NCBI GenBank assembly: GCA_964354685.1
Contig: CAYHAM010000005.1
Coordinates: forward strand, 9,942 to 73,941
Length of the DNA: 64,000 nt
Direction: 5' to 3'
Source of the DNA: an uncultured Methanosarcinales archaeon
Lineage (GTDB): Archaea; Nanobdellota; Nanobdellia; Woesearchaeales; JAGVZT01
A program made the translations under genes and the position numbers. Position 1 is the stretch's first letter, and each line of letters begins with the position of its first letter. The notes under the pieces are model-generated. The model did not search any database and had not been told where the DNA came from. It saw only the letters and a program-made list of their open reading frames with translations. Of the stretch, positions 802-19,795 are shown one piece after another.

Positions 802-2325
802 ATGAATAAGAAAAGAATAGTTCTAGGATTGGTGGCTTTGAGCCTAGTTTTTTTGTTGGCAGTTGGTGCAAGTGCTAGTTTTTTTGATGCGCTTGCTGAT
901 TTGTTTGGGATAAGATATGCGGCACCAGAGATTGTGAATATCTCTGTTTATCCACAGAAGGTGATGCCTGATAGTGTTATGCTGACAACTGTTGAGGTAG
1001 AAGATAAGTATGGTATTAGTGAGGCAATAGCAATTATACCTAATGAAAAGGGTTCTGACACAATAAAAATGCATTTGATTAGCGGCAGCTCTAAAAAGGG
1101 TGTTTATCAGTGCAGCTGGATTGAGCATGATGCAAAGAATGAGAAGTGGTATAATACAACAGTTATTGTTACAAATGTTAAAGGAATGAGCAGTGAAGCA
1201 AAGATTGAGTGGCAGGATCCAACAAAGAGTCATCCTGCAAGTGAGGTTACTGCTGGAACTTTTGATTCTGGGAATTTCAGTTTTCCTGACAGAGTTGGCA
1301 TAGGGACAACAAATCCTATAGCTAAGCTAGAGGTCAAAGATTCTGGAACCGGTGGATTATCCTTGAATGTGACTGGTGATTTGTATGTTAATGATACTGC
1401 TAACGGCGTAGGTATTGGAACAACAAATCCTGCTGGAGCACTTCAAGTTCTTGGTGATGAAGTTAGAATTGGAACCCCAACATGTTCGGATGCCTATTCA
1501 GCTGGTGACCTTTGTATGAATGGTTCTATTGAATCAGAAGGAGCAATTTTTGTGGGTGATATGTGGCACGTTGGTTCAAAATTAAGGATGGGTATGGATA
1601 CTATGTCAAGTAATCAAACTATTGTAGGCATCGCCACTAATGATGCTGGTGCAACCAATAGATATTACATAAAAATGTGGTCAGACGTTGATGGGACACT
1701 AGATGCAGAGTTTAGATTTGCAACTAATGGTACTGCCTATGCAGACGGCACGTGGCAGACAGGTGGAGCAGACCTAGCAGAAATATTTTATTTCCAGGAT
1801 ATCTCAGTTGAACAAGGTGATCTGGTTGCTTTTGTCGGAGAAGAAATCCTAGGTAAAAGTGGCGGCAAACCTTATGATTCGTCAATTGCTGGAGTAATCT
1901 CCACCAACCCAGGATTTTTGGGCGGAGTCAAAGAAGAAGAAGAAGAAAATCCTCATTTTAAACCTGTGGCTCTTATTGGTCGCGCACCGGTTAAAGTGAA
2001 TTTGGAAAATGGTCCAATTGAGGTTGGTGACCCACTGACATCTTCTTCTCAACCTGGAGTTGCAATGAAGGCAACCAAGCCTGGAATCATCATTGGAAAA
2101 GCATTGGAAAGCTTTGATGGGGAATGTAATGATTCAATTGTTGTTAAGCAGGAAGGAAAGGAATACAAGGTTTGTAAGATAATGACTTTTGTCAATGTTG
2201 GATATTGGGAGCCTGAAAACAATGATGATAGCAGTAAAGATATCAGTGAACTTGAGAATGAAGTTATGAAACTAAGGTATGAGGTTGCAATGTTGAGGAA
2301 AGAGTTGGCTGAAGTACAAAAGTAA
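802..2325 (+). CDS. Secreted protein with tail-fibre-like VGIGTTNP repeats and a C-terminal coiled coil
   Basis: N-terminal signal peptide (hydrophobic stretch, then ASAS). Two GIGTTNP..L.V repeats. C-terminal heptad region ELENEVMKLRYEVAMLRKELAEV. Confidence 0.5.
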   Translation: MNKKRIVLGLVALSLVFLLAVGASASFFDALADLFGIRYAAPEIVNISVYPQKVMPDSVMLTTVEVEDKYGISEAIAIIPNEKGSDTIKMHLISGSSKKGVYQCSWIEHDAKNEKWYNTTVIVTNVKGMSSEAKIEWQDPTKSHPASEVTAGTFDSGNFSFPDRVGIGTTNPIAKLEVKDSGTGGLSLNVTGDLYVNDTANGVGIGTTNPAGALQVLGDEVRIGTPTCSDAYSAGDLCMNGSIESEGAIFVGDMWHVGSKLRMGMDTMSSNQTIVGIATNDAGATNRYYIKMWSDVDGTLDAEFRFATNGTAYADGTWQTGGADLAEIFYFQDISVEQGDLVAFVGEEILGKSGGKPYDSSIAGVISTNPGFLGGVKEEEEENPHFKPVALIGRAPVKVNLENGPIEVGDPLTSSSQPGVAMKATKPGIIIGKALESFDGECNDSIVVKQEGKEYKVCKIMTFVNVGYWEPENNDDSSKDISELENEVMKLRYEVAMLRKELAEVQK

Positions 2326-2356
2326 AGGAGGTTTATAGTGGAAAAGTAATAACTGA

Positions 2357-4120
2357 ATGACCAAAACAAAGCGTGCATTAATTTTTGTATTTTTGTTTTT
2401 GCTAGTGTTAGTTCTTCCTAACCTAGCCAATGCTGCTTTGAATTGTAGTGTCACTAATGAAACTTGTAATTATGCTAATGTTTTCCATATGTCTAATCTA
2501 AGTAATGCCCATGCTGAGCAGAGCAATGAGTCTGATTACAACTGGAGTGTTTGTTGTTATGATGACGAGGGTGTTGCAACCTTAGGAACAGGTTGTACCG
2601 AGTATTCTTATACAATACTACATTTGTCTAATTCAACCAATGCGCATGTTGAGCAGAGCAATGAGTCTGATTATGTATATAATGTTTGTTTGAATACAAC
2701 TCATGATGATATTTCATGTGTTTATGCCTCAAGTTGCAGTGGTTATGATACTTGTGTTGCTTCTATTTCTAATCACAAAGATGCTCATATTGGGGATTGC
2801 GTAACAGATCCTTACTCAATCTTGATTTGTTGTAATTTGCAGAGCAAGGGGGTTATATCAACTACTGTGGGCACACAACCATTTTACACTACTTCAAGTA
2901 ATCCTCAGACTTATTTGAATGAGTCTTGTTTGCAGAATATGAAAAAGGGTAATTCCTGCAATGTTACATGGAATGTTGTTCCAACTGGATTAATAGGGAG
3001 TATTTGGCAGTTCTTTACAATATTTGAATCAACAAATTATTCATCTTATGTTAGCCAGCAACACACATCAAAGGGTAATATCACTATTTCTGGTAATACA
3101 GCACCAAGTATCTCTACTCCAACTATTAATCCTGATCCTGCTTATACAGATAATGATTTATTGTGTTATGCTAATGCAACCGATGATTTTAACACAACCT
3201 TGACAATAGAGTATTGGTGGTATAATAGCAGCATTTTGTTCGCTTCTGGAAATTATACTGGCGCTAGCAATGGTTCTAACACTTTGGTAAACACTCTTGA
3301 TTCAAGCTATACTGTTAAAAATGAGACTTGGAACTGTACTGTTAGGGCTTATGATGGAACTGATTATTCTAATTATGCTAGTGCAACAAGGACTATTAGC
3401 AACTCATTGCCTGAACAAGTTGTTTTGGATTATCCTGAAGATAATGATACCACATTTACAAACAGAACTCCAAGGTATAATTGGACTAATGCAACTGATT
3501 TAGATGGTGATTCTATTAGTTATCATATTGAGGTTAGCAAGACTGAAAACTTTTCTGATGAGACTGTTAATGAGACAAGTATAACCAACAATTATTATGA
3601 CCAGCCAACAGAGCTTGATTTTGCAACCTATTGGTGGAGGGTTAGGGCTAATGACTCGGATGGTTATGGTGAATTCAGTGATGTTTGGAACTTTACATTA
3701 GTTACAAGCCCAACTATAACATTGGTTACTGATGTTGTAAATTTCACCAATATGGAGGTTGGAGAGTCAAATGATACCTCTGATAATAACCCAATACCCT
3801 TCAAGATACAGAATGATGGCAATATAGCAGCCAATGTTAGTGTTAATGCAACTGCTTTGTGGACAAGTAGTTATGCTCCTTTAAACACTTCATATTATCA
3901 GTTCAAAGCAAATTACAGTGATGAGGCTAACTCTTTTGATTATGCTAATTCAGCAACCACTTGGCAGAATATGTCTGATGTGAACAAGGATGTTGTGGCT
4001 ATTTTGAATCATACTGATGCAAATGATGTTGTTAATATTGATATTGGTGTATTGGTTGCATTGGATGAGCCTCCTAACTGGAAAACATCAAATGTTTTGT
4101 TTACAGCTGTGGAAACATGA
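2357..4120 (+). CDS. Cys-rich secreted glycoprotein with an internal NAHxEQSNESDY repeat and an FN3-like segment (YWWRVRA)
   Basis: Signal peptide, many CC and C-x-C motifs, dense N-x-S/T sequons. Its stop overlaps the next gene (ATGA). Confidence 0.45.
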   Translation: MTKTKRALIFVFLFLLVLVLPNLANAALNCSVTNETCNYANVFHMSNLSNAHAEQSNESDYNWSVCCYDDEGVATLGTGCTEYSYTILHLSNSTNAHVEQSNESDYVYNVCLNTTHDDISCVYASSCSGYDTCVASISNHKDAHIGDCVTDPYSILICCNLQSKGVISTTVGTQPFYTTSSNPQTYLNESCLQNMKKGNSCNVTWNVVPTGLIGSIWQFFTIFESTNYSSYVSQQHTSKGNITISGNTAPSISTPTINPDPAYTDNDLLCYANATDDFNTTLTIEYWWYNSSILFASGNYTGASNGSNTLVNTLDSSYTVKNETWNCTVRAYDGTDYSNYASATRTISNSLPEQVVLDYPEDNDTTFTNRTPRYNWTNATDLDGDSISYHIEVSKTENFSDETVNETSITNNYYDQPTELDFATYWWRVRANDSDGYGEFSDVWNFTLVTSPTITLVTDVVNFTNMEVGESNDTSDNNPIPFKIQNDGNIAANVSVNATALWTSSYAPLNTSYYQFKANYSDEANSFDYANSATTWQNMSDVNKDVVAILNHTDANDVVNIDIGVLVALDEPPNWKTSNVLFTAVET

Positions 4121-5316
4121 AAATAAAAACAATATTGTGGATGATTGTAGCATTGGTTTTGGTTAGTCAAAGCCTTGCGCTTGGAGTTGCACCAGGCCAT
4201 GAGGATATTGTTTTTGCTCCAAATGGCGAGCATAGGGTAAAACTAAAGATAATCAACAATGACAACAATGATCTTAGAGTGGTTTTGTATGCAGAAGGCG
4301 AGCTTGCAGAGTTTGTCACTTTTGATGATTTGACTATGGATATTAGAGCAGATGAAAAAGAGAGCTTTACTTATTATACATTGAAATTGCCTGAGAAGTT
4401 TGATAAGCAAGGCTTGCATAGTGCTAACATTGTTGTTAGACAGATTCCTCTAGAGAAAGAGGGTGAGGGTATTAGCATGGCTGCTAGTGTTGCTATTATA
4501 CATAAGCTGAATGTTATGGTGCCTTATTCTGGGAAGTATGTTGAGATAACATTGTTTAGTCCAAACTTTGAGGTTGGCAAGCAGAGCAATTTTGCAGTTG
4601 AGGTTAGGAATTTGGGAACAGATGATATTTTGCAGGCTCAGGCGATAGTCGATATTTACGGGCCTTTGAATAACAAGCTTGATACTGTTTATTCTGATAT
4701 TCAGCCAATAGCAGCAAAGGACAAGAAGATATTGGTTGCAAAGTGGATTCCTGCATTAGGTGCTGGGAGTTATTATGCGGTTGCAACTGTTGTTTATGAT
4801 GAGTTGAATGTTAAGGATGAGGCTCAGTTTAATATTGGGACAATGATTATAGATGTTGTTGATGTTAGTGTTACTGACTTTAAGCTTGGAGGCATAGCAA
4901 AGTTTGATATTTTGTTTAGCAGCAACTGGAACATACCTGTTGAGGGGGTTTATGCTGAGACAACTATAACTGATGAGTCTGGCAAGGTTTATACAAAGTT
5001 TAAGACTGCTGATGTTGATATGCCTGCGTTTGGTAAGGAGCGTGTTGATGCCTATTGGGATACTGCAACAGTTGGGCCAGGCAAGTACAAGATGAATGTG
5101 TTGTTAAATTACTTAGATAAAACTTCTGAGAAGCTGTTTGAAATAATCGTTTCAATGGACAAGATCCAGGCTAGTCCTGTTGGTAAGCTTATAACACCAA
5201 TCCAAGAAGATGGTGAAGAGTTAAAGATAACCTCTTTGGTTTATATACTTGCATTCCTTGTTGTTTCGCTGATAATATTCAATGTATATATGTATTTTAA
5301 AAAGTTTAGAAAGTAG
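4117..5316 (+). CDS. Surface protein with signal peptide and C-terminal TM anchor; paralog of 7704..8855
   Basis: Shares the NLGTxxIxxAxAIxDxY core region with the 7704 ORF. C-terminal hydrophobic helix plus KKFRK tail. Confidence 0.5.
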   Translation: MKIKTILWMIVALVLVSQSLALGVAPGHEDIVFAPNGEHRVKLKIINNDNNDLRVVLYAEGELAEFVTFDDLTMDIRADEKESFTYYTLKLPEKFDKQGLHSANIVVRQIPLEKEGEGISMAASVAIIHKLNVMVPYSGKYVEITLFSPNFEVGKQSNFAVEVRNLGTDDILQAQAIVDIYGPLNNKLDTVYSDIQPIAAKDKKILVAKWIPALGAGSYYAVATVVYDELNVKDEAQFNIGTMIIDVVDVSVTDFKLGGIAKFDILFSSNWNIPVEGVYAETTITDESGKVYTKFKTADVDMPAFGKERVDAYWDTATVGPGKYKMNVLLNYLDKTSEKLFEIIVSMDKIQASPVGKLITPIQEDGEELKITSLVYILAFLVVSLIIFNVYMYFKKFRK

Positions 5317-5361
5317 TAGCTAATATTCTTAGTCTAATGATTTTTAATTTTAAAATTATAA

Positions 5362-5407
5362 TTAGCGAGTTGCCAGTGTCTAACCACAATATTGGCAACT
5401 CGTGGTG
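5362..5407 (+). repeat. Hairpin element copy A (TTAGCGAGTTGCC-N19-GGCAACTCGTGGTG)
   Basis: 9-10 bp inverted repeat with a ~19-nt loop containing AACCACAA. Immediately follows the AT-rich TTTTAATTTTAAAATTATAA. Confidence 0.75.
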
Positions 5408-5477
5408 ATTATTATTGGTTTTTAACTAATAAGAGATGAACAAGGTGGTTTATAAGAAACAAGGGTTAATTAACAGA

Positions 5478-5525
5478 AAAATTTATATATGTAATATATA
5501 ATTAGTTTGAATTAGTATAAAAACA
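5478..5525 (+). promoter_or_regulatory. Archaeal TATA-type promoter region shared by all three cassette copies
   Basis: TTTATATAT and GTATAAAA boxes 20-60 nt upstream of the ATG. The same sequence recurs at 6633..6680 and 9410..9457. Confidence 0.4.
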
Positions 5526-5543
5526 AAAAAAAAGGTTGATAAA

Positions 5544-6242
5544 ATGGCTGAAGAGATTTCTAATAGAACATTGGCAATTATGTTGATTGTTGTTATGGCA
5601 ATATCTTTGGGAGGTACTATAATTAGCTTGAATAGGCTAACTCAATTGGGCTTTCCTGGTATAACAGGTGCTGCAACTGGCACAGGGACATCAACAGTGA
5701 ATATAACATCACAGGCATCGATAATTTTTCATGCTGGCAATAACACGGTTGCTTTTGGTAATGGATGGGTGAATAGCACAGAGAGCAGTGGAATTTGTGT
5801 TATGAGTGCTGTAAATAATAGTATTGGTACAATAAGTGCAGCTTGTAAAGGTAATTGGGCTGCTGGTAAGAGTGGGTTTATAATAGAAAACAATGGAAAC
5901 GTGAATCTTAGTGTTGAGGTTCATTCAGACAAAAACGCAACTGAGTTCTTAGGTGGTCAAACCTCTGGAACTAATAACATGAATTTCACTTTTAGGGCTT
6001 ACAACAATGAAACAGCATCATGCGCTTATATAAACGATAGTTGTAATAGTACTGTGTGGCTTGCTTGGCCAAGCGATGATGCAAAAACAGGGATTTGTAA
6101 TACCACTGGGGGTTTGGGTTATGATGACACTAAAGACTCAATGGTTATTGACCTTAACTTAAGCATAGACTACAGAACCAATAAAACTGGTAATGGTACT
6201 CAAACAGCAACAATAACAGCTACTGGTACTGCCCTTATTTAA
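5544..6242 (+). CDS. Secreted/surface paralog family protein (232 aa) with N-terminal signal-anchor
   Basis: About 85-90% identical to 6960..7661 and 9737..10441. Charged N-terminus, ~20-aa hydrophobic segment, many sequons. Ends TATITATGTAL. Confidence 0.55.
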   Translation: MAEEISNRTLAIMLIVVMAISLGGTIISLNRLTQLGFPGITGAATGTGTSTVNITSQASIIFHAGNNTVAFGNGWVNSTESSGICVMSAVNNSIGTISAACKGNWAAGKSGFIIENNGNVNLSVEVHSDKNATEFLGGQTSGTNNMNFTFRAYNNETASCAYINDSCNSTVWLAWPSDDAKTGICNTTGGLGYDDTKDSMVIDLNLSIDYRTNKTGNGTQTATITATGTALI

Positions 6243-6411
6243 CTAGATTTTTTTATATCTTTTTTTGTTTTTGGAAAAGAGAAAATGAGATTATTTTTTT
6301 CAATGTTATACTTACAAAAACTTATGCGGCTTGTTGTTCTTTTTATGAAACTTTAATAAAATTTAAACTTAGGTTGCTGATAGTCATTATTTTTTAATAT
6401 TATTATGATAA

Positions 6412-6461
6412 CTAGGGTCGCCTGATAAGTGCTCAAACATGTTATGTCAGGCTCCTGGTGC
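6412..6461 (+). repeat. Hairpin element, divergent copy with compensatory stem changes (GGTCGCCTGA..TCAGGCTCCTGGTG)
   Basis: Same architecture, different stem sequence, still perfectly paired. Followed by the conserved tail GTTTCTCTCTATACTCAAGGAGACAAGAAAC. Confidence 0.55.
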
Positions 6462-6700
6462 TTTTGTTTCTCTCTATACTCAAGGAGACAAGAAACCTTA
6501 GACCTTTACCCGCGGGTTAATTGAACGTGGTGTATAATTTGCACTGAATTATTTTAATAGTCTATATAACAGTCATTTGTAACCATTAAGGAATAAACAA
6601 CTGTTTTTTGTAAAGAATAATGGTTAATTAACAGAAAAATTTATATATGTAGTATATAATTGGTTTAAATTAGTATAAAAACAAAAAAAAGGTTGATAAT

Positions 6701-6955
6701 ATGGCTCAAGAGGATATTCCAAAAAGGGTGATTTTTGTTCTTTTGATTTTGACAATTGTTATTTCTGTTTTAGGAACTTGGACTGTTCTGGATGCTGTAA
6801 GCAGTGCCCAGCCAAGGGCTTTGCCAAGCACAGCACAGGGTAATGTTAATATTAACATTTTACCACCAAATTCTGGTCAACAAGAACCTGCAATACAAAA
6901 AGCTGAAGCTCAAGGTGTTGTGGGTTTAACAATTCTTGAACAAAAAGGAGGATGA
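6701..6955 (+). CDS. Small membrane-anchored/secreted protein (84 aa), present in two identical copies
   Basis: MAQEDIPKR, then a hydrophobic helix, then a Q/P-rich tail. Identical to 9478..9732. Confidence 0.45.
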   Translation: MAQEDIPKRVIFVLLILTIVISVLGTWTVLDAVSSAQPRALPSTAQGNVNINILPPNSGQQEPAIQKAEAQGVVGLTILEQKGG

Positions 6956-6959
6956 TAGA

Positions 6960-7661: not shown

Positions 7662-7703
7662 CTAGATTTTTTTATATCTTTTTTGTTATTTGGAAAAGAG
7701 AAA

Positions 7704-8855: not shown

Positions 8856-8864
8856 TATGTTATA

Positions 8865-9732: not shown

Positions 9733-9736
9733 TAGA

Positions 9737-11162: not shown

Positions 11163-13906
11163 AAAGAACATATAAGAAAAGGAAGGAGAAGCATTTTTCG
11201 AACAACTTAGTTGCGTTGCTTGCAGTTGCCTTTGCAATTATCTCCTTGATTTGTAATATGGAGGTGTATAAAGGAACAGCGAAACTTATGCCTGTTGGAA
11301 GAGCAGTTGCTCAGGGCACAGTTAGTTTCAACATAGCAGGTTATCAACCAGTTCCTTTTGTTACTTACCCAAATGGGTGTGAGGTTGTGAATGGAACTAT
11401 TATGATAAATTCAACAGTGACTGATAAAGATGGTAATGACAGCATAGCTAATGTTAGCTTTTATTATTCAGGCGCGTTTAATGAATCTGGCCAAACATAT
11501 GTTGGTATACAAGTTTATGATGGGGATGTTTATTATGAGCAGAGCTGGAACACAAGCAATGTTTCAGATGGGATATACTACAAAATAAGGATTAATTCTG
11601 TTGACAATAAATCAATAACTGCTCAAGACAAGTCAAACAATTTCTTTGCAGTTAATAACATTGATGAGGTACCAGAGTGGGAGGAGTTCAAGTATGGTGT
11701 TTCAACAAATCTAAGCACGTTGAGCAAATGGTGGAATGTGAGCAATTTGCTGCTTGGTAATAATTATGGAATGATAAACTTCTCTAGCCAAACGCTTAAT
11801 GTGGATGGTGTTAATCTTTCAGCGTATATAGAGATAACTTTTGCAAAAATATTTTTGGATGATGATTACTTGCCATGTATGAGTGTTCCTGCTTACCTTC
11901 ACTTTTTTAATGTGAGCTTGACTGATCCTAGAATATTGAGGGATGGCGTGGAGTGTTCAGCACCTGCTTGTATCTTGATTTCAAATAATGGGAACGATGT
12001 TGTTTATAGGGTTTTAACCTTCTCAACATATGAGGTTTTTGATAATGCACAGCTTGAGATTTGGGATGTTACAGACAAAGGTGTTTATAATGGTAACCAA
12101 ACAAGGTATAAGAATGAGCAAACCGAGTTTTATGCAAATTTAACTTCAAATGGAACAGCAGTAAATGATAATTACACAAGCTGTTGGATAAGGTTCAACA
12201 TATCCGCAGATGAAACAGAATGGGAGGAGATGGAATTTAAGGGAAGCAGTTATCTTTATGAATCCCATCGAAAGTTTAATAATCCTGGTATCTACCCTTG
12301 GAAGGTTGTTTGTAATAACACTCAATCTGTGTATTTCAACTATACTAGAAATGATACTGTTAATATTTCTAACAGAGCTCCTGTTTTGACTTCTGCTTTA
12401 CCAAATATAACAATGCTGGAGGATAGGCAGCTTCTGTATGTTGATCTTGATGATTATTTTGAAGATCCTGATGGTGACACTATGACTTATAATAGTTCTT
12501 ATGTGCCAAATATAGTTATAACAATTGGAATAGGTAATATTGTTACTGTGGCTCCTGCTCAAAACTGGTATGGTAACAGGAGTTTTTTCATTAATGCAAT
12601 AGATGCATTCAACGCAACAACACAGAGTAATAGAATTTATATAACCGTAATCGATGTTCCAGAACCTTTACCAGAAACTGGTGCTGGCGGTGGTGGTGGT
12701 GGCGGAGGAGGCTATACTGAGACAGAATACATTGAAAGACCAGATTGTGTTGATAAGTGGAGGTGTTCATCATGGTCTGCTTGTGAGTTTAGATGGCCTG
12801 ATATTGAGGTTGATGAGATAAATGAGAATGATGGTATAAGAACAAGAAGTTGTGTTGATGTTAATAAGTGCAACTATTTTTGGAAGAAGCCCAATGAGAC
12901 AATGGATTGTTTTTATCAGCCAACATGCGATGATCATATCAAAAACCAAAAAGAGGAAAAAGTGGATTGCGGTGGGCCTAATTGCCCTGTTTGTCCAACA
13001 TGTGAGGATGGGGTTCAAAACCAGAATGAGACTGGCATGGATTGCGGTGGGCCTTGTAAGAGTTGTCCAAGCTGTTATGACGGTATACAAAACCAAGGTG
13101 AGGAAGGGGTTGATTGTGGTGGGCCTTGTAAGAGTTGTGCTTTGTTGGAAAAGCCAGAGCCTATTTTTGATTGGTTGATGATTGGATTGTTTGTTTTGAT
13201 GCTTTCGGTTTTGTTGTTTACAACATACATATTTGTTAGGCCTTACATTGTTAGGATAACCTTGAGTATAATGGGGCTAAAAGAGAGGATAAGGAGGAAA
13301 GAGGTGCCAACAAAGAGTTTGCTTGATTTAGAGTTAGACACATTGTTCAAGTTAGACAAACTAATCAAGATGTTAGAAAAGGGTGATCTAGATGATATAT
13401 CAAAACAATTCAATGCTGTTTTTAGAAGGTTTTTGAAAGAGGCGCTTAAAATAGAGTATGAGTTTACATATGAAGAGTTACAAGAGGAGATTAAGAAGCA
13501 GAATCTGCCTAGGTTATTAAAGATTGCTTTGAGTAATTATGTAAAAGAGCTCACTGAGATTCAGTATGGAAAGAGAAAACTAACAAAAGAATTGTTGAGT
13601 ATGGAGATTAAAAGAGCAAAGGAGCTTGTTGATTTGATTGTAAAAAATCTTCCAAAAGAGGTGGTGGCTGTAGAGAAAAAAGCTAAAGTGAGAGAATCTA
13701 GAGTTGATATAATAAGTGTGTATAAGCTAATTGTGGATGCAGAGAGGGCTTTGGCAAAGAAGGATATTGAGAAGGCAGGTAAGGTTTATAGTGAAATAGC
13801 CTCTGTTTATAAAAGACTACCTGATAAGCAAAAGAGGGAGATTTATCAAAAGGTATCAAAATTGGTGAAAGATATTGATGGTATGTCAAAGGATATGAAA
13901 AGATGA
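11159..13906 (+). CDS. Large surface glycoprotein (915 aa). Has LPETG-Gly9, three DCGGPC-x-C repeats, a TM helix and a ~225-aa cytoplasmic tail with the YEFTYEEL domain
   Basis: Signal/TM near the N-terminus and many sequons. Repeats QNQxExGxDCGGPCKSC occur three times. TM IGLFVLMLSVLLF. The tail is homologous to the N-terminus of the 18137 ORF. Confidence 0.55.
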   Translation: MKRTYKKRKEKHFSNNLVALLAVAFAIISLICNMEVYKGTAKLMPVGRAVAQGTVSFNIAGYQPVPFVTYPNGCEVVNGTIMINSTVTDKDGNDSIANVSFYYSGAFNESGQTYVGIQVYDGDVYYEQSWNTSNVSDGIYYKIRINSVDNKSITAQDKSNNFFAVNNIDEVPEWEEFKYGVSTNLSTLSKWWNVSNLLLGNNYGMINFSSQTLNVDGVNLSAYIEITFAKIFLDDDYLPCMSVPAYLHFFNVSLTDPRILRDGVECSAPACILISNNGNDVVYRVLTFSTYEVFDNAQLEIWDVTDKGVYNGNQTRYKNEQTEFYANLTSNGTAVNDNYTSCWIRFNISADETEWEEMEFKGSSYLYESHRKFNNPGIYPWKVVCNNTQSVYFNYTRNDTVNISNRAPVLTSALPNITMLEDRQLLYVDLDDYFEDPDGDTMTYNSSYVPNIVITIGIGNIVTVAPAQNWYGNRSFFINAIDAFNATTQSNRIYITVIDVPEPLPETGAGGGGGGGGGYTETEYIERPDCVDKWRCSSWSACEFRWPDIEVDEINENDGIRTRSCVDVNKCNYFWKKPNETMDCFYQPTCDDHIKNQKEEKVDCGGPNCPVCPTCEDGVQNQNETGMDCGGPCKSCPSCYDGIQNQGEEGVDCGGPCKSCALLEKPEPIFDWLMIGLFVLMLSVLLFTTYIFVRPYIVRITLSIMGLKERIRRKEVPTKSLLDLELDTLFKLDKLIKMLEKGDLDDISKQFNAVFRRFLKEALKIEYEFTYEELQEEIKKQNLPRLLKIALSNYVKELTEIQYGKRKLTKELLSMEIKRAKELVDLIVKNLPKEVVAVEKKAKVRESRVDIISVYKLIVDAERALAKKDIEKAGKVYSEIASVYKRLPDKQKREIYQKVSKLVKDIDGMSKDMKR

Positions 13907-16900
13907 GTGAAAATAAGAGAAGAGGGATAGTGAAAATATTGTTGTTGGTTTTTGTACTAATATTAAGTATAGTTTTTTTGAATAGTGTAAAAGCCACTGA
14001 TCCATCTTTTGATCCATCGCCTCCTTCAATGTTTAATCTAACACAGGATGTAAATTTTTATTATGATTTGAACGCAACTGATCCTGACAATAACACACCA
14101 TTCGTATTTTCTGATGATGCTGCATCTAGGGGTTGGTACGTATTTTTGATGAATAATGTAACGGGTGAGATAAACTTTACTCCATCAAATGATGATGTTG
14201 GATCAAACCAAGTTACTCTAATTGTTACTGATAGTAATTTAGAGCAGGATTCTAAGCTTGTTAATTTCAATGTGTCGAATGTGAATGACCCTCCGAATAT
14301 AACAGGATATACACCAACAAATTTAACACCAACAATCTATGAGAATGATTCTATTGGGTTTACATTTAATTACAATGCAACTGATCCTGATCTTCCTTAT
14401 GGTGATTCATTAACAAACACGTGGTATATGGATGGGGTTAACCAATCAAACAACCAGTCTTGGACTTACACACCTGACTTTTGTGAACCAAGTAATAGAA
14501 ACATAACCCTGATTGTCTGGGATTTGTATAATGCTACTGACAGTGTTGAGTGGAATGTGACTGTTATCAATGTTAACAGGCCTGTTGAATTTAACTCAAG
14601 CAGTCCAATACAGGATATAACCTGGCCAGAGGACACAGACCTAATAAACAACATATCATTAAACAATTATTTCTATGATCTTGATTATTCTGAGTGTAAT
14701 GATTCTCTGAATTTCAGTGTTGTTGGCAATCAGAGTATTGTGGTTAATATAAGCAGTATAACACCTCACAATGTTAGCTTCCACACACTACCTGACTGGT
14801 TTGGGGTGGAGGTAATTAATTTCACTGCTTGGGATGGTTATGACAATGCAACTAGCAACAATGTTGTGCTCAATGTCACTGATGTGGAAGACGCGCCTGT
14901 TATTGAGAATATCTCTGACCAGGTTGCTTATGCTTATGCTCCCTTTAGTCTACAAGTGAATGCAAGTGACCCTGATAATGATACTTTGACTTATTATGAT
15001 AATACAACTATGTTTGATATCAATCCATCAACTGGTTTGATTTCATTTACACCCAACCAATCTAATGTGGGAAATTATTCTATTATGATTAATGTTACTG
15101 ATGATGCAAACAATGTTTTCACAACCTTTGATTTGACAATTTACAACAATTCTGTACCAGGCATAGATTTAATCACAGATCAAGTTGTTGAGGAGAGCAG
15201 TTTGTTCCAGATAACTGTTAATGGCTCTGATTCTGATGCAGACAATCTCACTTTCCAGACAAATTATTCTGCAATGATAAATCCTGTTTGGAGCAATGCC
15301 ACTTCTGCAACATTTAGCTTTACTCCGTACCAGTATAATGTTGGCAATCATTCAATTAAGGTCACTGTTTTGGATGAGCATGGTGCAAGCAATTTCACGA
15401 TATTTAATTTGAGTGTTACTGATATCAACAACCCTCCTGTTCTAGATTCAATACCAACTCCACAGATTGTGAAGATAAACAAGAGTTTCACAATGCAGTT
15501 AAATGCAAGTGATGCTGATGGTGATGAGTTGAACTTTACCCATAATGCTTCTCCTGTTGATTTTCCAAACTTTTATATGAATAGCAGTGGGTTTATCAAC
15601 TTTACAGCAAATGCATCTGATGAGGGCAATCATAGTTTGAATATTACTGTCTGGGATGTAACTGCTGTGCCAAAGCAGGATTCCCAGATTGTTTTATATA
15701 TAGTTACATATAACAGACCACCAATTATAGATGCAGTGGGTATGCAGAATGGAACAGAGGATGATTTATTTACCTTACAGATAAATGCAACTGATCCTGA
15801 CAATGATCCAATAGTATTTTATACAAACTCAACAATATTTAACATAAGCACTGGTGGTTTGATAAACTTCACTCCTAATGGAAGCCATGTTGGTTTGCAT
15901 AATATCTCTGTTAATGTTAGTGATGGGGATGGCGGGTGGGGGAATATTACATTTTTACTGAATATATCTGATAAGAATGATGCTCCTTACTTCGATCCTC
16001 CTCTAGAAAATTTGAGTATATGGAACAACATATATGAAGATTCGTTGATTGAGATATATGTTAATGCAACTGATGAGGAGAATGATGATTTGACGTTTAC
16101 AAGAACATTCTTAAATGGGTCTACTATATTCAACATAACAAAGATAGGAACAAATCAGGCTCTGATAAATTTCACTCCTACACAGGCTGATGTGGGGTAT
16201 AATTACTCTGTTAATATAACTGTTAGTGATGGTATAAACACAACATGGGTTGTTATAAACTTCAGTGTTTATAATGTGAATGATGCACCAAATATAACTA
16301 GAGTGTATCCTTATGGAACACCATTGTCGAATTATACTGTTTTTGGTTGGGCCAATCATAGCTATTTCCCAAATGGAAGTTGGATAAATGCTTCTGAGAA
16401 TATGAGTATTTTCTTTAATCATAGTAGTACTGATCCTGATAATGCAAGCTTGATTTATATATGGTATTTTAATGGTAATATTGTTAATAACCAATCATAT
16501 TGGAATTATTCTTTGAATTTTAGCTCAAATGGCACTCATAATGTAACTCTAGTTGTTAGTGATGGTAATTTGAGTGATAGCATGTATTGGAACTTGAGTG
16601 TTTCAAATGTGAATAGGCCACCTGTGTTTGGCAAAAAGATTCATGATGATTATGCTGACTTTTCAGGAGGGAGTTTTTATAGAACCAATGTAACTTCAGA
16701 TGGAAGAATAGAGTTAAGCGAGAACTCAAGCTATTATCCAAATGGTTTGTATAATTCCTCTGTTATTAATCTTGATATGGATGATGGGTTTAATTATAGC
16801 ACGATTAGCTGGTCAGCATATGTGCCTAATGGTACAAGTGCAGATATAAAGACAAGAACATCCACAGATGGTTTATCTTGGAGTAGTTGGAGCAGTGCCA

Positions 16901-18090
16901 TTAATATAACTGGTAATGGTAATGTAGAATTTCCCTCACTTAGTTATAGGTATGTTCAATACATGATAAACCTTTCAACATCAAACACATCAATAACACC
17001 TTATATTAGTAGCATTACAATAAATTATGTTGTATCAAACAAAAGTCTGGCTGAAAACCAAGATGTTAATTATGGCGCATGGATTGATTTAGATGATTTC
17101 TTCTATGACCCTGATGGTGATAGCTTAAATTTCAGTGTTGGTGGTGAGTCAAATATTGATGTTATAATACAGAACACAACAAACTTTGTTGGCTTGTTCC
17201 CAGTTAGTGTTGGTACTGATACAATAACATTTAGTGCAATTGATAGCAATGGGGATAACATAACTAGCAACTCTTTCTTAATAATAGTGACTGAGGCAAC
17301 TGGAACAGGGTTGCAAGAGACAAGTAGTAGTGGGGGCACAAGCGTGGTGATTAGGACAAAGGTGAAAGAGGAGGAGAAAGAGGTGGAGAAGATCATCAAC
17401 CTTGATATTATTGTGCCAGAGGCTTTGACGACTTATAGGAACTCAACGATTGTTTCTCCAATTAGACTTAGAAACACTGGAAAAGAGGTTTTGGAGAATA
17501 TTAATTTGTCAGCAAGTTCAAACAATACAGGGCTAACAATGGAGTTTACAAAGAGTTTCTTCAAGAGCTTGGGAGTTAATGAGGAAGAGAAAACAAATCT
17601 TGTTATAACCTCTCCTGAATTTTTAGGTAATTATGAGATTGTGGTGACAGCTAGTGTGCAAAACCCAGAGTTTGAGGATAGTGCAAAAATAATTTTGAAC
17701 ACACTTGAGAAGGGAGAGCTCAACAAGACTCAGCTCTATACAAAAATAACCTTTACTGAAGATTTGTTGCTTGCAAACCCAGAGTGTTTGGAACTGATGG
17801 AGCTTTTGAAGGAGGCTGAGAAGGCTGTGAATGAATCAAGGTTTGTTGATGCAAATGATCAGATAGAGAAGGCAATAAGGGGTTGTAGGTATTTAATAGC
17901 AGCAAAAGAAACCTTTTTAGAAGAGCCAAGTCCTATTGAGAGAATATATGATAGGATATTTGGATTGACCTCAAAGAACAGGGTGTTGAGTTATGTCTTG
18001 ATAATTGCGGGTATATTCACACTTCTGACTTTCTCGCTCTTGTGGGAGAGATTTAGAAAGGGGAGGGAGTTAAAGAAAAAGAAGTCTTAA
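13903..18090 (+). CDS. Giant surface protein (1395 aa) with cadherin-like / Dystroglycan-type repeats and a C-terminal TM anchor
   Basis: Recurrent NATDPDND, FYDPDGD and NVNDAPNIT motifs. C-terminal hydrophobic helix plus RKGRELKKKKS. ATGA overlap with the upstream gene. Confidence 0.6.
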   Translation: MSENKRRGIVKILLLVFVLILSIVFLNSVKATDPSFDPSPPSMFNLTQDVNFYYDLNATDPDNNTPFVFSDDAASRGWYVFLMNNVTGEINFTPSNDDVGSNQVTLIVTDSNLEQDSKLVNFNVSNVNDPPNITGYTPTNLTPTIYENDSIGFTFNYNATDPDLPYGDSLTNTWYMDGVNQSNNQSWTYTPDFCEPSNRNITLIVWDLYNATDSVEWNVTVINVNRPVEFNSSSPIQDITWPEDTDLINNISLNNYFYDLDYSECNDSLNFSVVGNQSIVVNISSITPHNVSFHTLPDWFGVEVINFTAWDGYDNATSNNVVLNVTDVEDAPVIENISDQVAYAYAPFSLQVNASDPDNDTLTYYDNTTMFDINPSTGLISFTPNQSNVGNYSIMINVTDDANNVFTTFDLTIYNNSVPGIDLITDQVVEESSLFQITVNGSDSDADNLTFQTNYSAMINPVWSNATSATFSFTPYQYNVGNHSIKVTVLDEHGASNFTIFNLSVTDINNPPVLDSIPTPQIVKINKSFTMQLNASDADGDELNFTHNASPVDFPNFYMNSSGFINFTANASDEGNHSLNITVWDVTAVPKQDSQIVLYIVTYNRPPIIDAVGMQNGTEDDLFTLQINATDPDNDPIVFYTNSTIFNISTGGLINFTPNGSHVGLHNISVNVSDGDGGWGNITFLLNISDKNDAPYFDPPLENLSIWNNIYEDSLIEIYVNATDEENDDLTFTRTFLNGSTIFNITKIGTNQALINFTPTQADVGYNYSVNITVSDGINTTWVVINFSVYNVNDAPNITRVYPYGTPLSNYTVFGWANHSYFPNGSWINASENMSIFFNHSSTDPDNASLIYIWYFNGNIVNNQSYWNYSLNFSSNGTHNVTLVVSDGNLSDSMYWNLSVSNVNRPPVFGKKIHDDYADFSGGSFYRTNVTSDGRIELSENSSYYPNGLYNSSVINLDMDDGFNYSTISWSAYVPNGTSADIKTRTSTDGLSWSSWSSAINITGNGNVEFPSLSYRYVQYMINLSTSNTSITPYISSITINYVVSNKSLAENQDVNYGAWIDLDDFFYDPDGDSLNFSVGGESNIDVIIQNTTNFVGLFPVSVGTDTITFSAIDSNGDNITSNSFLIIVTEATGTGLQETSSSGGTSVVIRTKVKEEEKEVEKIINLDIIVPEALTTYRNSTIVSPIRLRNTGKEVLENINLSASSNNTGLTMEFTKSFFKSLGVNEEEKTNLVITSPEFLGNYEIVVTASVQNPEFEDSAKIILNTLEKGELNKTQLYTKITFTEDLLLANPECLELMELLKEAEKAVNESRFVDANDQIEKAIRGCRYLIAAKETFLEEPSPIERIYDRIFGLTSKNRVLSYVLIIAGIFTLLTFSLLWERFRKGRELKKKKS

Positions 18091-18104: not shown

Positions 18105-18136
18105 AGTAATTTTTAATAATGAATAATAAAATAGAA

Positions 18137-19795
18137 TTATGTCAGTCGTGAGAGTTTAAGATCAATATCAATACCTGTTAGATCATAAGATATTCTCTTT
18201 GAGTCTTCGCTCTTGAGTCTTAGGTATTTTTTGATTTGAAGGGCTTTTGAGTATGTGTCCATTGCTGATGAATAATTTCCTTGGTTTATTAGGTGTTGGG
18301 TTGTTTGAATCAGGTTATCAAGGTCTTCAATTTGTAATTTTGAGGTTGGTTTTTTGATTGGTTGAGTGAGTTCTGTCTTTGTTGATTCTGATTTGGGTTT
18401 TGATATTAAAGTGGTTGTTTTTTCAGATGGGTTTGGTTGAGTTTGGATTTCGTGAGCATAAGATGAAACAAGAATAGACTTTGGTCTAAAAGAGGCGTCT
18501 CCTTTTTGGATTGATTCTAGTTCTAAGGAGGGTATGTTTTCTATTGTTGGTTGTTTTTCAAATTTGGCTTGCTTTGATGGTTGTTGAGGATAGAACTCTA
18601 GTTCTGGTTGTTCTGGTTTAAATTGAGTGGGAGCCTTTTTCTTCATTTCTAAATCAGGGATGACTGGTTTCTTCTTAATACGTGGTTTTAATGATTGTTG
18701 TACTTTTGGTTCACTTATTTTTGGTGTGACCATCTCAGGCAGAGAGTTAATATCTATTTTTGGAGGGGGTGGAGTAGGCATAAGTGGAGGTAGTTCCATT
18801 TCTTCAATGTGTTTTTTTGGTTTGAATAATGATTTCAAGAAAGATTTTTTTGTGGGTTGTTCTTCTTCTGATACAAGTTTCATTTCTTGAGATAGCTCTT
18901 CTTCTAATTCTAACCCAGGCATCGGAGGGGGTGGAGGTAGGTCCAACTCTGGTTGGGTTGTCGGCTTGGTTGTTGGTTCTGTTATTGGTTTTTCTATTGG
19001 CTCTGGCTCTTTTAATGAGTTGACTTCTTTTCTTAATTGTGTTATCTCTTTTTTGATTTGCCTTGCCTCAATAGGTGTAAGTGTATTGTATAGTGCATCT
19101 ATTTTTGATAGTTGTGATTCTGCTTTTGCAATGCGGTTGTTGCTTATATCCTCATAGCTTTCTGCCAACATACTATACAAAAAGGTTAATTTGTCTTGTG
19201 GTGTTTTTCTCAACCACTTTAATGTTAATGCTGATGTTAGGTTAAATTTGAGGTTGGTTATTGTTCTATTTAATTTTCCTTCAGATGGAGCCTTTTTCTT
19301 CAATTTGATTTTTGGTTTGGGAGTAGCAGTCTTTTTTATTCTTAATTTGACTAACAATCTAGAAAGCAAACCATGTTTTGTACTTGTTATAATAGCATGT
19401 TTCTCTTCTAAAACAAGGGGTATTAGGTTTTCAAACTTTTGAAGTTGTTGGTTTAATTCTTCTATGGTGTAGCCCTCTTGCTTAAACTCCATATTGGATA
19501 GATGCTTGAAAAATTCGGTGAGTTCTGATTTTAGCTCTGGGGAGAGTCTTCTATTCTCCATCTCTTTGACAAACTCTTCATAGGTGAAGTAATACCTGAT
19601 TTTAAGTAGTTTCATAAAGAAGAATCTGATAATTGCTGAGAATTCTGAAGAATGGTCTTTTTCAGGAGTGTCAGAGATCTGCTGTCTTAACTTTTGGAGT
19701 TTGTTTTTTGTTATCTCATCTACTCTTATTTCAGGTTCATTTTGTTTTTTGCGCTTAAACCTCTTTTTTAATCTTGATTTGATAGGAATAGCCAT
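18137..19795 (-). CDS. Pro/Lys-rich protein (552 aa) sharing the YxFTYEE domain with the cytoplasmic tail of 11159
   Basis: IRFFFMKLLKIRYYFTYEEF aligns with FRRFLKEALKIEYEFTYEEL. PPPPP and KPK low-complexity stretches. Confidence 0.45.
   Translation of the reverse strand: MAIPIKSRLKKRFKRKKQNEPEIRVDEITKNKLQKLRQQISDTPEKDHSSEFSAIIRFFFMKLLKIRYYFTYEEFVKEMENRRLSPELKSELTEFFKHLSNMEFKQEGYTIEELNQQLQKFENLIPLVLEEKHAIITSTKHGLLSRLLVKLRIKKTATPKPKIKLKKKAPSEGKLNRTITNLKFNLTSALTLKWLRKTPQDKLTFLYSMLAESYEDISNNRIAKAESQLSKIDALYNTLTPIEARQIKKEITQLRKEVNSLKEPEPIEKPITEPTTKPTTQPELDLPPPPPMPGLELEEELSQEMKLVSEEEQPTKKSFLKSLFKPKKHIEEMELPPLMPTPPPPKIDINSLPEMVTPKISEPKVQQSLKPRIKKKPVIPDLEMKKKAPTQFKPEQPELEFYPQQPSKQAKFEKQPTIENIPSLELESIQKGDASFRPKSILVSSYAHEIQTQPNPSEKTTTLISKPKSESTKTELTQPIKKPTSKLQIEDLDNLIQTTQHLINQGNYSSAMDTYSKALQIKKYLRLKSEDSKRISYDLTGIDIDLKLSRLT

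Follow-up and report, generated by a model that had tools for sequence, protein, structure and literature searches.

Gene content of the locus

The window analyzed here, a 64,000-nt stretch of archaeal DNA, contains a forward-strand block of surface-protein genes at 802-18090. Its first part (802..10441, + strand) encodes exported or membrane-anchored proteins of 507, 587, 399 and 390 aa (CARDB-like, C-terminal TM), along with three ~240-aa paralogues, two identical 84-aa ORFs and one 138-aa ORF, and the paralogous copies share 83-94% nucleotide identity. Relatives of the 399/390-aa, ~240-aa, 84-aa and 138-aa proteins adjoin membrane proteins with an FTYEE-type tail (described below) at the related loci L010, L011, L012, L026, L034, L035 and L040. 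Hydropathy analysis placed an N-terminal hydrophobic segment in all ORFs of the block except a 108-aa ORF, and N-x-S/T sequons occurred at 2-3.5 times the composition expectation in the surface-block proteins (35 in the ORF at 2357-4120, 13-15 in each of the three pilin-like paralogues), in agreement with the initial annotation, which had described mostly signal-peptide proteins, several of them sequon-dense. The 108-aa ORF (10836..11162, + strand) lacks a TM segment, overlaps the start of the next gene by 4 nt and had no match in Pfam, NCBIfam or PADLOC; its relatives (E = 8e-30, 4e-29) are found in L010, immediately upstream of a homologue of that next gene, and in L032.

That next gene encodes a 915-aa type I membrane protein (11159..13906, + strand), as assigned by hydropathy, domain search and homologues. 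A signal/anchor segment is followed by an Ig-like ectodomain predicted to be glycosylated, three juxtamembrane DCGGP-Cys modules (aa 603-665; 12965..13153, + strand; DCGGP starting at aa 603, 628 and 652), a TM helix (about aa 675-693; 13181..13237, + strand; hydropathy scan) and a cytoplasmic tail of ~222 aa, so the three Cys modules, TM helix and long tail proposed earlier were all borne out. All 28 sequons fall within aa 1-666 and none in the tail. The family fragments P0058 and P0070 likewise have a DCGGP-Cys module ahead of their TM helix, and colinear homologues of the 915-aa protein were found in L010 (2e-149), L009, L006 and L007. The tail carries two parts: module 1, the "FTYEE" domain (aa 706-834; 13274..13660, + strand; profile match 211 bits), and module 2 at the C-terminus (about aa 852-907; 13712..13879, + strand; HMM E = 1.3e-8 and 3e-16).

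The stop of this gene overlaps by 4 nt the start of a gene for a 1395-aa surface protein with cadherin/Big_9 repeats, 100 sequons and a C-terminal TM anchor (13903..18090, + strand), and the two are translationally coupled in the window. Pfam matches to Big_9 (1.5e-33, 7 stretches), Cadherin_5, He_PIG and Cadherin_4 confirmed the cadherin-like nature suggested for this protein. On two contigs, counterparts of the 915-aa and 1395-aa proteins are fused, in that colinear order, into one protein of 2285 aa (L006) or 2351 aa (L007), and in the latter the FTYEE domain forms the loop between TM2 and TM3.

On the opposite strand lies a gene for a soluble 552-aa FTYEE protein (18137..19795, - strand; BLASTP, phmmer and HMM matches). 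The protein lacks a TM segment, and its 3 sequons are about as many as its composition predicts. It consists of a basic N-terminus, module 1 (aa 8-132; 19400..19774, - strand), a first module 2 (aa 205-258; 19022..19183, - strand), a K/P/E-rich linker with polyproline runs, and a second, C-terminal module 2 (aa 489-539; 18179..18331, - strand), in which a weak TPR_1 match was detected at aa 504-522 (E = 0.095). A 100-bp AT-rich divergent intergenic region containing TTTATTTAAATA (19796..19895) separates this gene from moxR and may act as a promoter region common to both.

The 552-aa gene stands head-to-head with a forward-strand operon encoding a MoxR-type AAA+ ATPase (19896..20909, + strand; AAA_3 1.6e-59, AAA_lid_2 6e-18), a DUF58 protein of VWA-like fold with a DVSDS MIDAS-type motif and no TM segment (20910..21806, + strand; DUF58 2.8e-40), and a BatA-type VWA membrane protein (21797..22732, + strand; VWA 5e-21, BatA N-terminal region 1.6e-3). 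The last has TM segments near aa 9, 57 and 280, a basic KRRALK loop between TM1 and TM2, and a DASSS MIDAS motif, and its VWA domain is predicted to face outward. With AAA_3, DUF58, a TM-anchored VWA protein and MIDAS motifs, the operon is of the MoxR-DUF58-VWA (Bat-like) type.

A two-part cytoplasmic domain shared by membrane-anchored and soluble proteins

The initial annotation had proposed that the 915-aa tail is homologous to the N-terminal region of the 552-aa protein, and three tests agreed on this. BLASTP aligned the two at 32% identity over 98 aa (E = 3e-12), phmmer over all 551 ORFs of the window recovered the match at E = 4e-13 with no other ORF significant, and the score of 44.0 bits compared with a mean of 0.8 (SD 1.6, maximum 12.3) for ~2000 composition-preserving shuffles. 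As 44.0 bits is far above the shuffle maximum, the similarity is not an effect of Lys/Glu composition. The shared region comprises module 1 (~125 aa, a five-helix bundle) and module 2 (~55 aa). An AF2 model gave a 5-helix plus 3-helix arrangement (pLDDT 84.7 overall), with the five helices of module 1 in the 915-aa tail at pLDDT 85-95. F64, T65 and E68 of module 1 (F-T-x-x-E) were near-invariant in 60 diverse members, and the F-T-Y-E-E-L stretch at the start of helix 3 reads as a helix cap in which T is the N-cap, the Glu at N3 completes a capping box, and F and L form a hydrophobic staple.

A module 1 profile search returned 428 protein clusters with E ≤ 1e-3, of which 41 reached E ≤ 1e-10; this is a lower bound, counted as representative clusters at 50% identity. 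Among the best 150 of the 428 matches, 36 were C-terminal copies, 50 were N-terminal in soluble proteins and 64 were short, and module 1 started about 35-50 aa past a TM segment in all 36 of the C-terminal type. The tail-type members are signal-peptide/ectodomain proteins, some reduced to an N-terminal TM helix plus the domain, and in the soluble members an N-terminal module 1 is followed by long, largely low-complexity K/P/E-rich linkers. A scan of ten long soluble members found no Pfam domain and no kinase, HTH, nucleotide-cyclase or other output domain. The family combining modules 1 and 2 was found here solely in records labelled as Woesearchaeota/Nanoarchaeota-type DPANN archaea, the organism labels being those of the public records, some of which read "uncultured Methanosarcinales" and one "Alphaproteobacteria".

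Module 1 had no significant match in Pfam, NCBIfam, PADLOC or PDB. In PDB its profile came closest to a plasmepsin prosegment at E = 0.037, which is not credible, and Foldseek with the model gave a best E of 0.15 with query TM-scores ≤ 0.38. What the 915-aa and 552-aa proteins share is a real two-part cytoplasmic domain that lacks annotation; with no curated family describing it and its location on the cytoplasmic side of surface proteins, the earlier suggestion of an uncharacterized intracellular module holds.

In NCBIfam, 7 of 60 module 1 segments aligned in consistent register to positions ~333-437 of the 454 in NF047389 ("P-loop ATPase, Sll1717 family"; best E = 5e-4). Membership was rejected, the scores being 13-19 bits against a cutoff of 75 and confined to the C-terminal part of the model, with no P-loop domain present.

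Module 2 recurs in a protein of the pilus operon

A 935-aa protein (36168-38975, - strand) is encoded in a type IV pilus-like operon with a T2SSE ATPase and two T2SSF proteins, about 16 kb from the FTYEE genes. It has a winged HTH, six tandem 74-aa repeats of the module 2 type (37221..38522, - strand), with the Y of the Y..LP motif at aa 184, 258, 332, 406, 480 and 558, and then TPRs (TPR_14 at 1e-8). Pairwise comparison of the "YKRLP" region was weak (7.5 bits). Profiles matched in both directions: an HMM of the six repeats detected the 915-aa tail (E = 1.3e-8) and the 552-aa protein (E = 3e-4) and nothing else in the window, and an HMM built from FTYEE-family members alone matched the 935-aa protein at E = 6e-27 with 7 units, which upholds the claim that the Y..LP unit recurs there six or more times.

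In the AF2 model of the 915-aa tail, module 2 takes the form of helices 165-180 and 184-209 behind a long helix 133-161, and we describe it as a TPR-like "A..Y..i...Y..LP" unit with a predicted helix pair and capping helix. Its "A...Y..A...Y..LP" pattern resembles TPR helix B, and the six-repeat HMM weakly touches the bona fide TPRs of the 935-aa protein; however, the unit measures 55-74 aa rather than 34 aa, occurs as a single copy at the C-terminus, and no Pfam TPR model reached threshold on module 2 units. Of 158 members, 114 had a module 2 after module 1, and in 103 of the 158 it was C-terminal; 34 of the 44 members without a downstream copy have fewer than 50 aa remaining past module 1.

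The soluble FTYEE gene is paired with a MoxR operon across related loci

Four other members inspected directly were all divergent from MoxR-DUF58-VWA genes (4/4). We extended the comparison to GTDB species-representative loci chosen solely by the peptide YEFTYEEL, counting as informative an N-terminal-type gene with at least 1.5 kb of upstream sequence. A divergent moxR within 700 bp was present for 13 of 17 such genes; a nearby moxR was absent for the other 4 (L032, L038 and L040 among them), and 9 of 15 tail-type genes had no moxR inside the sequence covered. At 14 of 19 paired loci there was also a homologue, at least 500 aa long, of the 915-aa or 1395-aa protein, and the giant cadherin-like gene is usually convergent on the soluble FTYEE gene. 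Since the genes flanking the cassette vary among loci, mere inherited synteny is argued against. The conserved head-to-head placement of the soluble paralogue with MoxR-DUF58-BatA/VWA genes is the strongest line of evidence, and it favors an AAA+/VWA chaperone system over a generic scaffold. Neither this pairing nor the fused proteins figured in the initial annotation.

Proposed role of the FTYEE domain

MoxR-type ATPases act via VWA adaptors whose MIDAS binds an acidic residue of the client, as in CbbQ/CbbO-Rubisco, RavA/ViaA and NorQ/NorD. The present operon likewise encodes a cytoplasmic MoxR ATPase beside a MIDAS-bearing VWA-fold protein (DUF58), a possible client adaptor, whereas the clients of those systems are enzymes (Rubisco, fumarate reductase/respiratory complexes, NO reductase) and the one proposed here is an adhesin tail. 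We infer, with a probability of roughly 45%, that giant adhesins are served by an archaeal Bat-like MoxR/VWA system in which the FTYEE domain is the docking or adaptor module on the cytoplasmic side. The cytoplasmic MoxR ATPase would work via the cytoplasmic DUF58 protein, whose MIDAS-type motif is intact, and the two would engage FTYEE modules on adhesin tails and thereby assemble the adhesin complex, remodel it or anchor it. The soluble paralogue, which retains the basic juxtamembrane stretch of the tail, could be a membrane-proximal tether or a competitor acting through homotypic module contacts, and the outward VWA domain of the BatA-type protein may act on the ectodomain side. Module 1 itself offers no candidate MIDAS ligand, because its invariant T and E resemble helix-capping residues with a structural role more than ligands. 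In concept alone, helical-bundle adaptors that recognize the short cytoplasmic part of a single-pass adhesin recall eukaryotic integrin-talin and cadherin-catenin; the Foldseek matches to alpha-catenin, talin and FAT domains all had E > 1 and give no evidence of homology. Even in bacteria, the mechanism of Bat/MoxR-DUF58 systems is not established (PMC3557215).

The FTYEE domain on both adhesin tails and a moxR-paired protein is a concrete candidate target of the chaperone system. Bacteria and archaea commonly carry MoxR-DUF58-VWA ("Bat") operons, for which, to our knowledge, no client has been established. With their very small genomes, Woesearchaeota-type DPANN archaea probably rely on attachment to host cells, and we are not aware of any explanation for the assembly or control of their huge surface proteins. 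A further step, which we regard as rather doubtful, would be an "inside-out" adhesion of DPANN archaea, in which MoxR remodels FTYEE tails via DUF58, the disordered paralogue acts as tether or regulator, and host attachment is controlled from the cytoplasm; if true, the widespread MoxR-DUF58-Bat systems would gain their first defined client. The F-T-x-x-E module with its C-terminal TPR-like unit can serve as a sequence marker for adhesin cassettes in metagenomes, and the family, which numbers at least 428 clusters at 50% identity, could form a new domain-database entry.

Relation to bacterial Bat operons and alternative explanations

The bacterial Bat operons examined have the gene order MoxR-DUF58-DUF4381-VWA-VWA-BatD, and the MoxR (AAA_3), DUF58 and BatA-type VWA genes occur here in identical order. 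The predicted outward orientation of the VWA domain is a further likeness, that of the BatA-type relative BB0173 of Borrelia being periplasmic (PMC5700661), and the TPR-like module 2 has a parallel in the TPR partners BatB/C/E. The FTYEE genes differ in that they diverge from the operon and are not placed between DUF58 and BatA, a second VWA gene (BatB) is absent, and the associated membrane proteins are giant cadherin/Ig-repeat adhesins, predicted to be N-glycosylated, of an archaeal host (DPANN-type records). The leading alternative, unlikely in our estimate, is that module 1 is a highly diverged archaeal DUF4381 or BatD cytoplasmic tail and the locus an ordinary Bat operon with rearranged gene order. 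It agrees with the operon association, as FTYEE genes occur with MoxR, DUF58 and BatA-type VWA genes, and with the position right behind a TM helix, some members consisting, like DUF4381, of a TM helix and a helical domain of ~100 aa; the 915-aa protein resembles BatD in its signal peptide, beta-rich ectodomain, TM helix and helical cytoplasmic tail, a likeness of architecture alone and not evidence of homology.

Sequence and profile comparisons nevertheless gave no significant similarity of module 1 to either family. With E limits of up to 1-10, Pfam DUF4381 (PF14316) was detected in neither window copy, nor in 60 domain segments, 9 TM-anchored members and the consensus; about 80 members and the family consensus matched neither BatD (PF13584) nor DUF4381 even at E ≤ 10; the 915-aa protein had no BatD match in the Pfam scan; and HMM-to-sequence searches in both directions gave nothing better than E = 0.085. 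Comparing a 123-sequence FTYEE with an 82-sequence DUF4381 alignment, hhalign matched 32 columns over the last two helices ("..EY....") with a score of 17.8 (P = 0.027) and a probability of just 1.8%, and against 9 BatD tails the probability was 0.1%. The score of 17.8 exceeded 150/150 column shuffles (mean 8.9, SD 1.7, maximum 14.9; reversed alignment 8.7), a test that flatters any helix-to-helix match because column shuffling destroys helical periodicity, and a relaxed alignment (mact 0.05) was colinear across 111 columns. Homology of module 1 to bacterial DUF4381 or a BatD tail is not established, and such a relationship would be compatible with the docking-module reading, from which it differs just in calling the domain known.

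Less probable still is the scaffold model of the initial annotation, taken as a self-associating module independent of MoxR, in which adhesin tails would join a cytoplasmic lattice including the 935-aa protein via Y..LP units. Module 2 is common to the 915-aa, 552-aa and 935-aa proteins, the last being a rod of six such units plus TPRs, and the long, K/P/E-rich soluble paralogues without a Pfam domain would suit a tether. But module 2 is a generic TPR-like protein-interaction unit, so its sharing with the 935-aa protein is a weaker sign of a common pathway than the initial annotation implied; the pilus operon is distant, 39 related archaeal loci yielded no homologue of the 935-aa protein, and the conserved neighbor is the MoxR operon, not pilus genes.

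We consider improbable an outside-in signaling route in which an ectodomain ligand alters the state of the tail, which is then read by the soluble paralogue or the MoxR system, as in single-pass receptors. Variable ectodomains on a constant tail match single-pass receptor architecture, and the divergence of the soluble gene from the operon could indicate co-regulation, but the ten scanned soluble members lack an output domain and module 1 has no conserved catalytic-looking residues besides the capping motif. That the similarity is mere Lys/Glu-rich coiled coil or low complexity, as two K-, E- and L-rich, wholly helical regions might suggest, is ruled out for practical purposes by the 44 bits against a shuffle maximum of 12.3, the conserved F-T-x-x-E, the 428 relatives and an AF2 model showing a helical bundle with loops and no continuous coil.

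A two-module cytoplasmic domain shared by a surface protein and a soluble protein

The 222-aa cytoplasmic tail of the 915-aa surface protein (11159-13906, + strand) matched residues 32-129 of the soluble 552-aa protein (18137-19795, - strand) with 32% identity (BLASTP, E = 3e-12). Among 551 stop-to-stop ORFs of the window, the 552-aa protein was the sole significant non-self match of the tail (E = 4e-13), and the reverse search was concordant. The phmmer score between the tail and the 552-aa N-terminus was 44.0 bits, compared to a maximum of 12.3 bits (mean 0.8, SD 1.6) for about 2000 composition-preserving shuffles of that N-terminus, which rules out low-complexity Lys/Glu coiled coil as the source of the similarity and bears out the homology proposed in the initial annotation. 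HMMER aligned the two proteins over two colinear stretches: module 1, the FTYEE domain of about 125 aa, which includes FRRFLKEALKIEYEFTYEEL, and a weaker module 2 of about 55 aa, which includes AGKVYSEIASVYKRLPDKQKREIYQKV. In the 552-aa protein the basic N-terminus aligned with the tail's juxtamembrane basic stretch, and an LK.R..RK pattern common to both was invariant in alignment A1. The linker of the 552-aa protein (aa 259-488; 18332-19021, -) is K/P/E-rich, with polyproline runs LPPPPPMP and TPPPPK.

The 915-aa protein starts with a signal/anchor segment and an Ig-like ectodomain that weakly matched Big_9 and Big_7; three DCGGP-Cys modules (aa 603, 628 and 652), a TM helix from near aa 675 onwards and the tail follow. 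All 28 N-x-S/T sequons of the protein precede the TM helix and the tail has none, which fits an outside/inside split and the intracellular placement originally suggested for the module.

A profile of module 1, built from the two window copies and searched exhaustively against 1.84 billion representative proteins, retrieved 428 proteins at E ≤ 1e-3, 41 of which reached E ≤ 1e-10. The family was found solely in this way, as word-indexed homology searches returned nothing, whether the query was the tail or the two-sequence profile. The initial annotation had called the module uncharacterised, had proposed profile searches and had named the lack of a conserved core, or a match to a known family, as refuting: F64, T65 and E68 of the FTYEE signature were near-invariant in a 60-member alignment, and the searches left the module uncharacterised. 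Pfam gave no match for the two window copies, the 60 domain segments, the family consensus, nine TM-anchored members or ten long soluble members; NCBIfam gave none at threshold for the family and PADLOC none for FTYEE proteins. The profile found no credible relative among PDB sequences, only non-significant generic helical bundles, and tblastn of a module 1 sequence against plasmids found nothing credible. Ten relatives returned with source information had no precomputed Pfam domains and, where the source names them, are hypothetical proteins of 'Candidatus Woesearchaeota archaeon'. Searches of the literature on DPANN or Woesearchaeota with MoxR or VWA, and on Sll1717, turned up no description of the domain. 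The NCBIfam model NF047389 ('P-loop ATPase, Sll1717 family') matched 7 of the 60 segments (for example in P0010, P0015 and P0018) in a consistent register at model positions ~333-437 of 454, with weak scores of 13-19 bits against a cutoff of 75 (best E = 5e-4), and module 1 may, judged by sequence, be remotely related to the C-terminal helical region of these ATPases. The two modules define a new cytoplasmic domain family, carried both by the tails of adhesins and by a soluble paralogue.

Among the best 150 of the 428 matches, module 1 was C-terminal in 36, lying ~35-50 aa past a predicted TM helix in proteins with an additional N-terminal hydrophobic segment, and N-terminal in 50 proteins of 300-1300 aa without a TM segment; the other 64 were short proteins, of which some had a TM helix at the N-terminus. 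Module 2 followed module 1 in 114 of 158 members and lay at most 25 residues from the C-terminus in 103, and 34 of the 44 members without a downstream module 2 have fewer than 50 residues after module 1. Long soluble members carry 300-1100 aa of K/P/E-rich sequence between module 2 copies, and in the fragments P0058 and P0070, as in the 915-aa protein, DCGG.C modules closely precede the TM helix on its outer side.

The soluble FTYEE gene is conservedly paired with a MoxR operon and giant adhesin genes

The main new result is the conserved MoxR neighbourhood of this family, a link not picked up in the initial annotation. The 552-aa gene is divergent from, and 100 bp apart from, an operon encoding MoxR (19896-20909; AAA_3, 1.6e-59), a DUF58 protein (20910-21806; DUF58, 2.8e-40) and a BatA-type VWA membrane protein (21797-22732; VWA, 5e-21, plus a BatA N-terminal region), all on the + strand. 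The 100-bp intergenic region (19796-19895) is AT-rich and contains the TATA-like TTTATTTAAATA. All four other family members whose contigs were looked up were head-to-head with an operon of the MoxR type; on the same four contigs a large Ig/cadherin-like protein (762-2351 aa) converges on the FTYEE gene from the other side, and the genes outside this cassette differ. A GTDB scan of one genome per species, with the peptide YEFTYEEL alone as query, yielded 34 loci, the record titles of which were mostly Woesearchaeota or Nanoarchaeota, with some 'uncultured Methanosarcinales' and one 'Alphaproteobacteria'. Co-occurrence across related genomes had been proposed as a check. Of the 17 N-terminal-type genes for which 1.5 kb or more of upstream sequence was available, 13 had moxR divergent within 700 bp (as did two more near contig ends). 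Among the 19 paired loci in total, 14 encoded a protein of 500 aa or more that is homologous (E < 1e-10) to the 915-aa or the 1395-aa protein (13903-18090, +). Gene order was as in the window at L009, L010, L026, L034, L035 and L038, namely FTYEE-tailed protein, adhesin, soluble FTYEE gene converging on the adhesin and then divergent moxR, the last seen only where the sequence reaches that far. At two further loci, L028 (6710-8638, 643 aa) and L033 (2649-4640, 664 aa), both on contigs of one Woesearchaeota assembly, an FTYEE-tailed membrane protein gene converges directly on a MoxR-DUF58-VWA operon, meeting the 3' end of its VWA gene; the partners are the same but differently arranged.

In other genomes the two adhesin halves are fused. 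A single protein, of 2285 aa in L006 and of 2351 aa in L007 (also P0047), is colinear with aa 5-907 of the 915-aa protein and then aa 21-1350 of the 1395-aa protein. Module 1 lies mid-protein (~aa 693-854), and with predicted TM segments at 24, 657, 980 and 2319 the FTYEE region forms the TM2-TM3 loop, which places it, by prediction, on the opposite side to both ectodomains. These fusions and the 4-nt overlap of the two genes in the window make it very probable that the 915-aa protein and the 1395-aa protein each form half of a single surface complex. The 915-aa gene also overlaps by 4 nt a translationally coupled 108-aa ORF (10836-11162), which has no TM segment and no match to curated families; homologues of it are found in L010, where they immediately precede the 915-like gene, and in L032 and L031, and its product may contribute to the cassette as an additional cytoplasmic component.

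MoxR and the DUF58 protein have no TM segment, and the latter retains a DxSxS motif (DVSDS). In the BatA-type protein, TM segments lie near aa 9, 57 and 280 and the VWA domain bears a MIDAS motif (DASSS); the TM1-TM2 loop is basic (KRRALK), and the positive-inside rule therefore predicts a VWA domain outside the cell, in agreement with the experimentally periplasmic VWA domain of Borrelia BB0173 (PMC5700661). If so, MoxR and DUF58 are the only two components that can meet the FTYEE modules directly. By analogy with the MoxR-plus-VWA-adaptor systems CbbQ/CbbO, RavA/ViaA and NorQ/NorD, we infer that the FTYEE domain would be the cytoplasmic handle by which the MoxR/DUF58 pair acts on, or is recruited to, the adhesin complex, with the soluble paralogue as a tether or competitor. 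The interpretation given in the initial annotation is partly supported: the module is uncharacterised and intracellular, and its coupling of surface proteins to a cytoplasmic scaffold is a putative role. We class the locus as a Bat-like MoxR/VWA system of DPANN-type archaea, a known system type in which the candidate adaptor domain and the adhesin partners are new.

Comparison of module 1 with bacterial Bat components and its predicted structure

The Bat proteins of bacteria are believed to assemble into a membrane complex, and MoxR has been postulated to load the MIDAS metal, the mechanism not being established (PMC3557215). Our starting hypothesis was that module 1 is itself a DUF4381 domain or a BatD tail, the two architectures bearing module 1 resembling DUF4381 (TM helix plus helical domain) and BatD (signal peptide, ectodomain, TM helix and helical tail). 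The comparison set comprised bacterial operons from plasmids, with the order MoxR-DUF58-DUF4381-VWA-VWA-(TPR)-BatD, and 80 metagenomic DUF4381 loci, and left out three plasmid MoxR loci of other operon types (DUF3488, DUF4129 and SpoIIM/RDD). The FTYEE HMM found nothing better than E = 0.18 among DUF4381 and BatD proteins, the DUF4381 HMM nothing better than E = 0.085 among FTYEE proteins, and hhalign gave probabilities of 0.8% against eight DUF4381 sequences and 0.1% against nine BatD tails, leaving the hypothesis unconfirmed save for a weak local match. Against an 82-sequence DUF4381 alignment from the metagenome scan (probability 1.8%, P = 0.027), that match covered 32 columns in the last two helices ('..l...EY....') and scored 17.8, above the reversed alignment (8.7) and all 150 column shuffles (mean 8.9, SD 1.7, max 14.9), which lose the periodicity of helices and thereby make every match between helices look better than it is; a relaxed alignment was colinear over 111 columns. 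These sequence tests do not establish homology of module 1 to DUF4381 or to the BatD tail; we consider it possible but rather unlikely.

An AlphaFold2 model of aa 706-915 of the 915-aa protein, run with a 12-sequence alignment (mean pLDDT 84.7, pTM 0.55), predicted five helices for module 1 (16-33, 39-57, 66-75, 80-98 and 105-125; pLDDT mostly 85-95) and, past a low-confidence linker, three more (133-161, 165-180 and 184-209). Helix 3 begins at Y66 of F64-T65-Y66-E67-E68-L69, which would make T the N-cap, E68 the capping-box N3 residue and F and L a hydrophobic staple; going by the DSSP string, the signature is most simply a fold determinant. The invariant Glu was rejected as a MIDAS ligand, as it occupies the N3 capping-box position and is probably structural. 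Foldseek found nothing in the PDB below E = 0.15, returning non-significant generic helical bundles (HEPN, SbsC, catenin and FAT), and HEPN membership was rejected because the R-x(4-6)-H motif is absent.

Module 2 recurs in a pilus-operon protein

From its sequence pattern ('..kd.ekA...Y..i...Y..LP....k..iy..i') and predicted helix pair plus third helix, module 2 is a predicted TPR-like unit. The claimed recurrence of this Y..LP unit in the 935-aa protein (36168-38975, -), encoded upstream of the pilus ATPase, was reproduced in both directions. Six copies follow a strict 74-aa period (Y at aa 184, 258, 332, 406, 480 and 558), and an HMM built from them matched the 552-aa protein (E = 3e-4) and, more strongly, the 915-aa tail at its C-terminus (E = 1.3e-8), with no window ORF matched besides these three proteins; within the 935-aa protein it also gave weak matches to the bona fide TPRs of the C-terminal third. 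Conversely, a module 2 HMM from FTYEE-family proteins alone matched seven units of the 935-aa protein (E = 6e-27), one in the 915-aa tail and two in the 552-aa protein, at aa 205-258 and 489-539. The 39 related archaeal loci yielded no homologue of the 935-aa protein. Its layout is a winged HTH, the six TPR-like units and TPRs, and its pilus-like operon (32867-40687, -) further holds two T2SSF genes and a T2SSE ATPase gene, with a radical-SAM gene (39773-40687) just upstream.

The surface-protein block

The window has a G+C content of ~35% and archaeal gene content (Hel308-type helicase domain 4, TruD and the type IV pilus-like T2SSE/T2SSF operon). Between 802 and 18090, all + strand ORFs of at least 84 aa start with a hydrophobic segment, the 108-aa ORF excepted, and sequons in several are 2-3.5 times the composition expectation, with 100 in the 1395-aa protein, 35 in a 587-aa protein, the 28 of the 915-aa protein and 13-15 in each of three ~240-aa paralogues. 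The 1395-aa protein matched Big_9 (1.5e-33, seven stretches) as well as Cadherin_5, Cadherin_4, He_PIG and PKD models, and ends in a C-terminal TM anchor. At the window edge, a 107-aa ORF (55-378) with 6 sequons resembles the end of another surface protein; the 144-aa ORF overlapping it (371-805) lacks both sequons and a TM segment. Within 5526-10495, the genes of the three paralogues, ~0.75 kb each (5544-6242, 6936-7661 and 9713-10441), are 83-94% identical at the nucleotide level and encode N-terminally anchored products. A duplication with a spacing of 2777 bp bears two identical 84-aa ORFs (6701-6955 and 9478-9732), and the set looks like recently amplified surface-protein genes.
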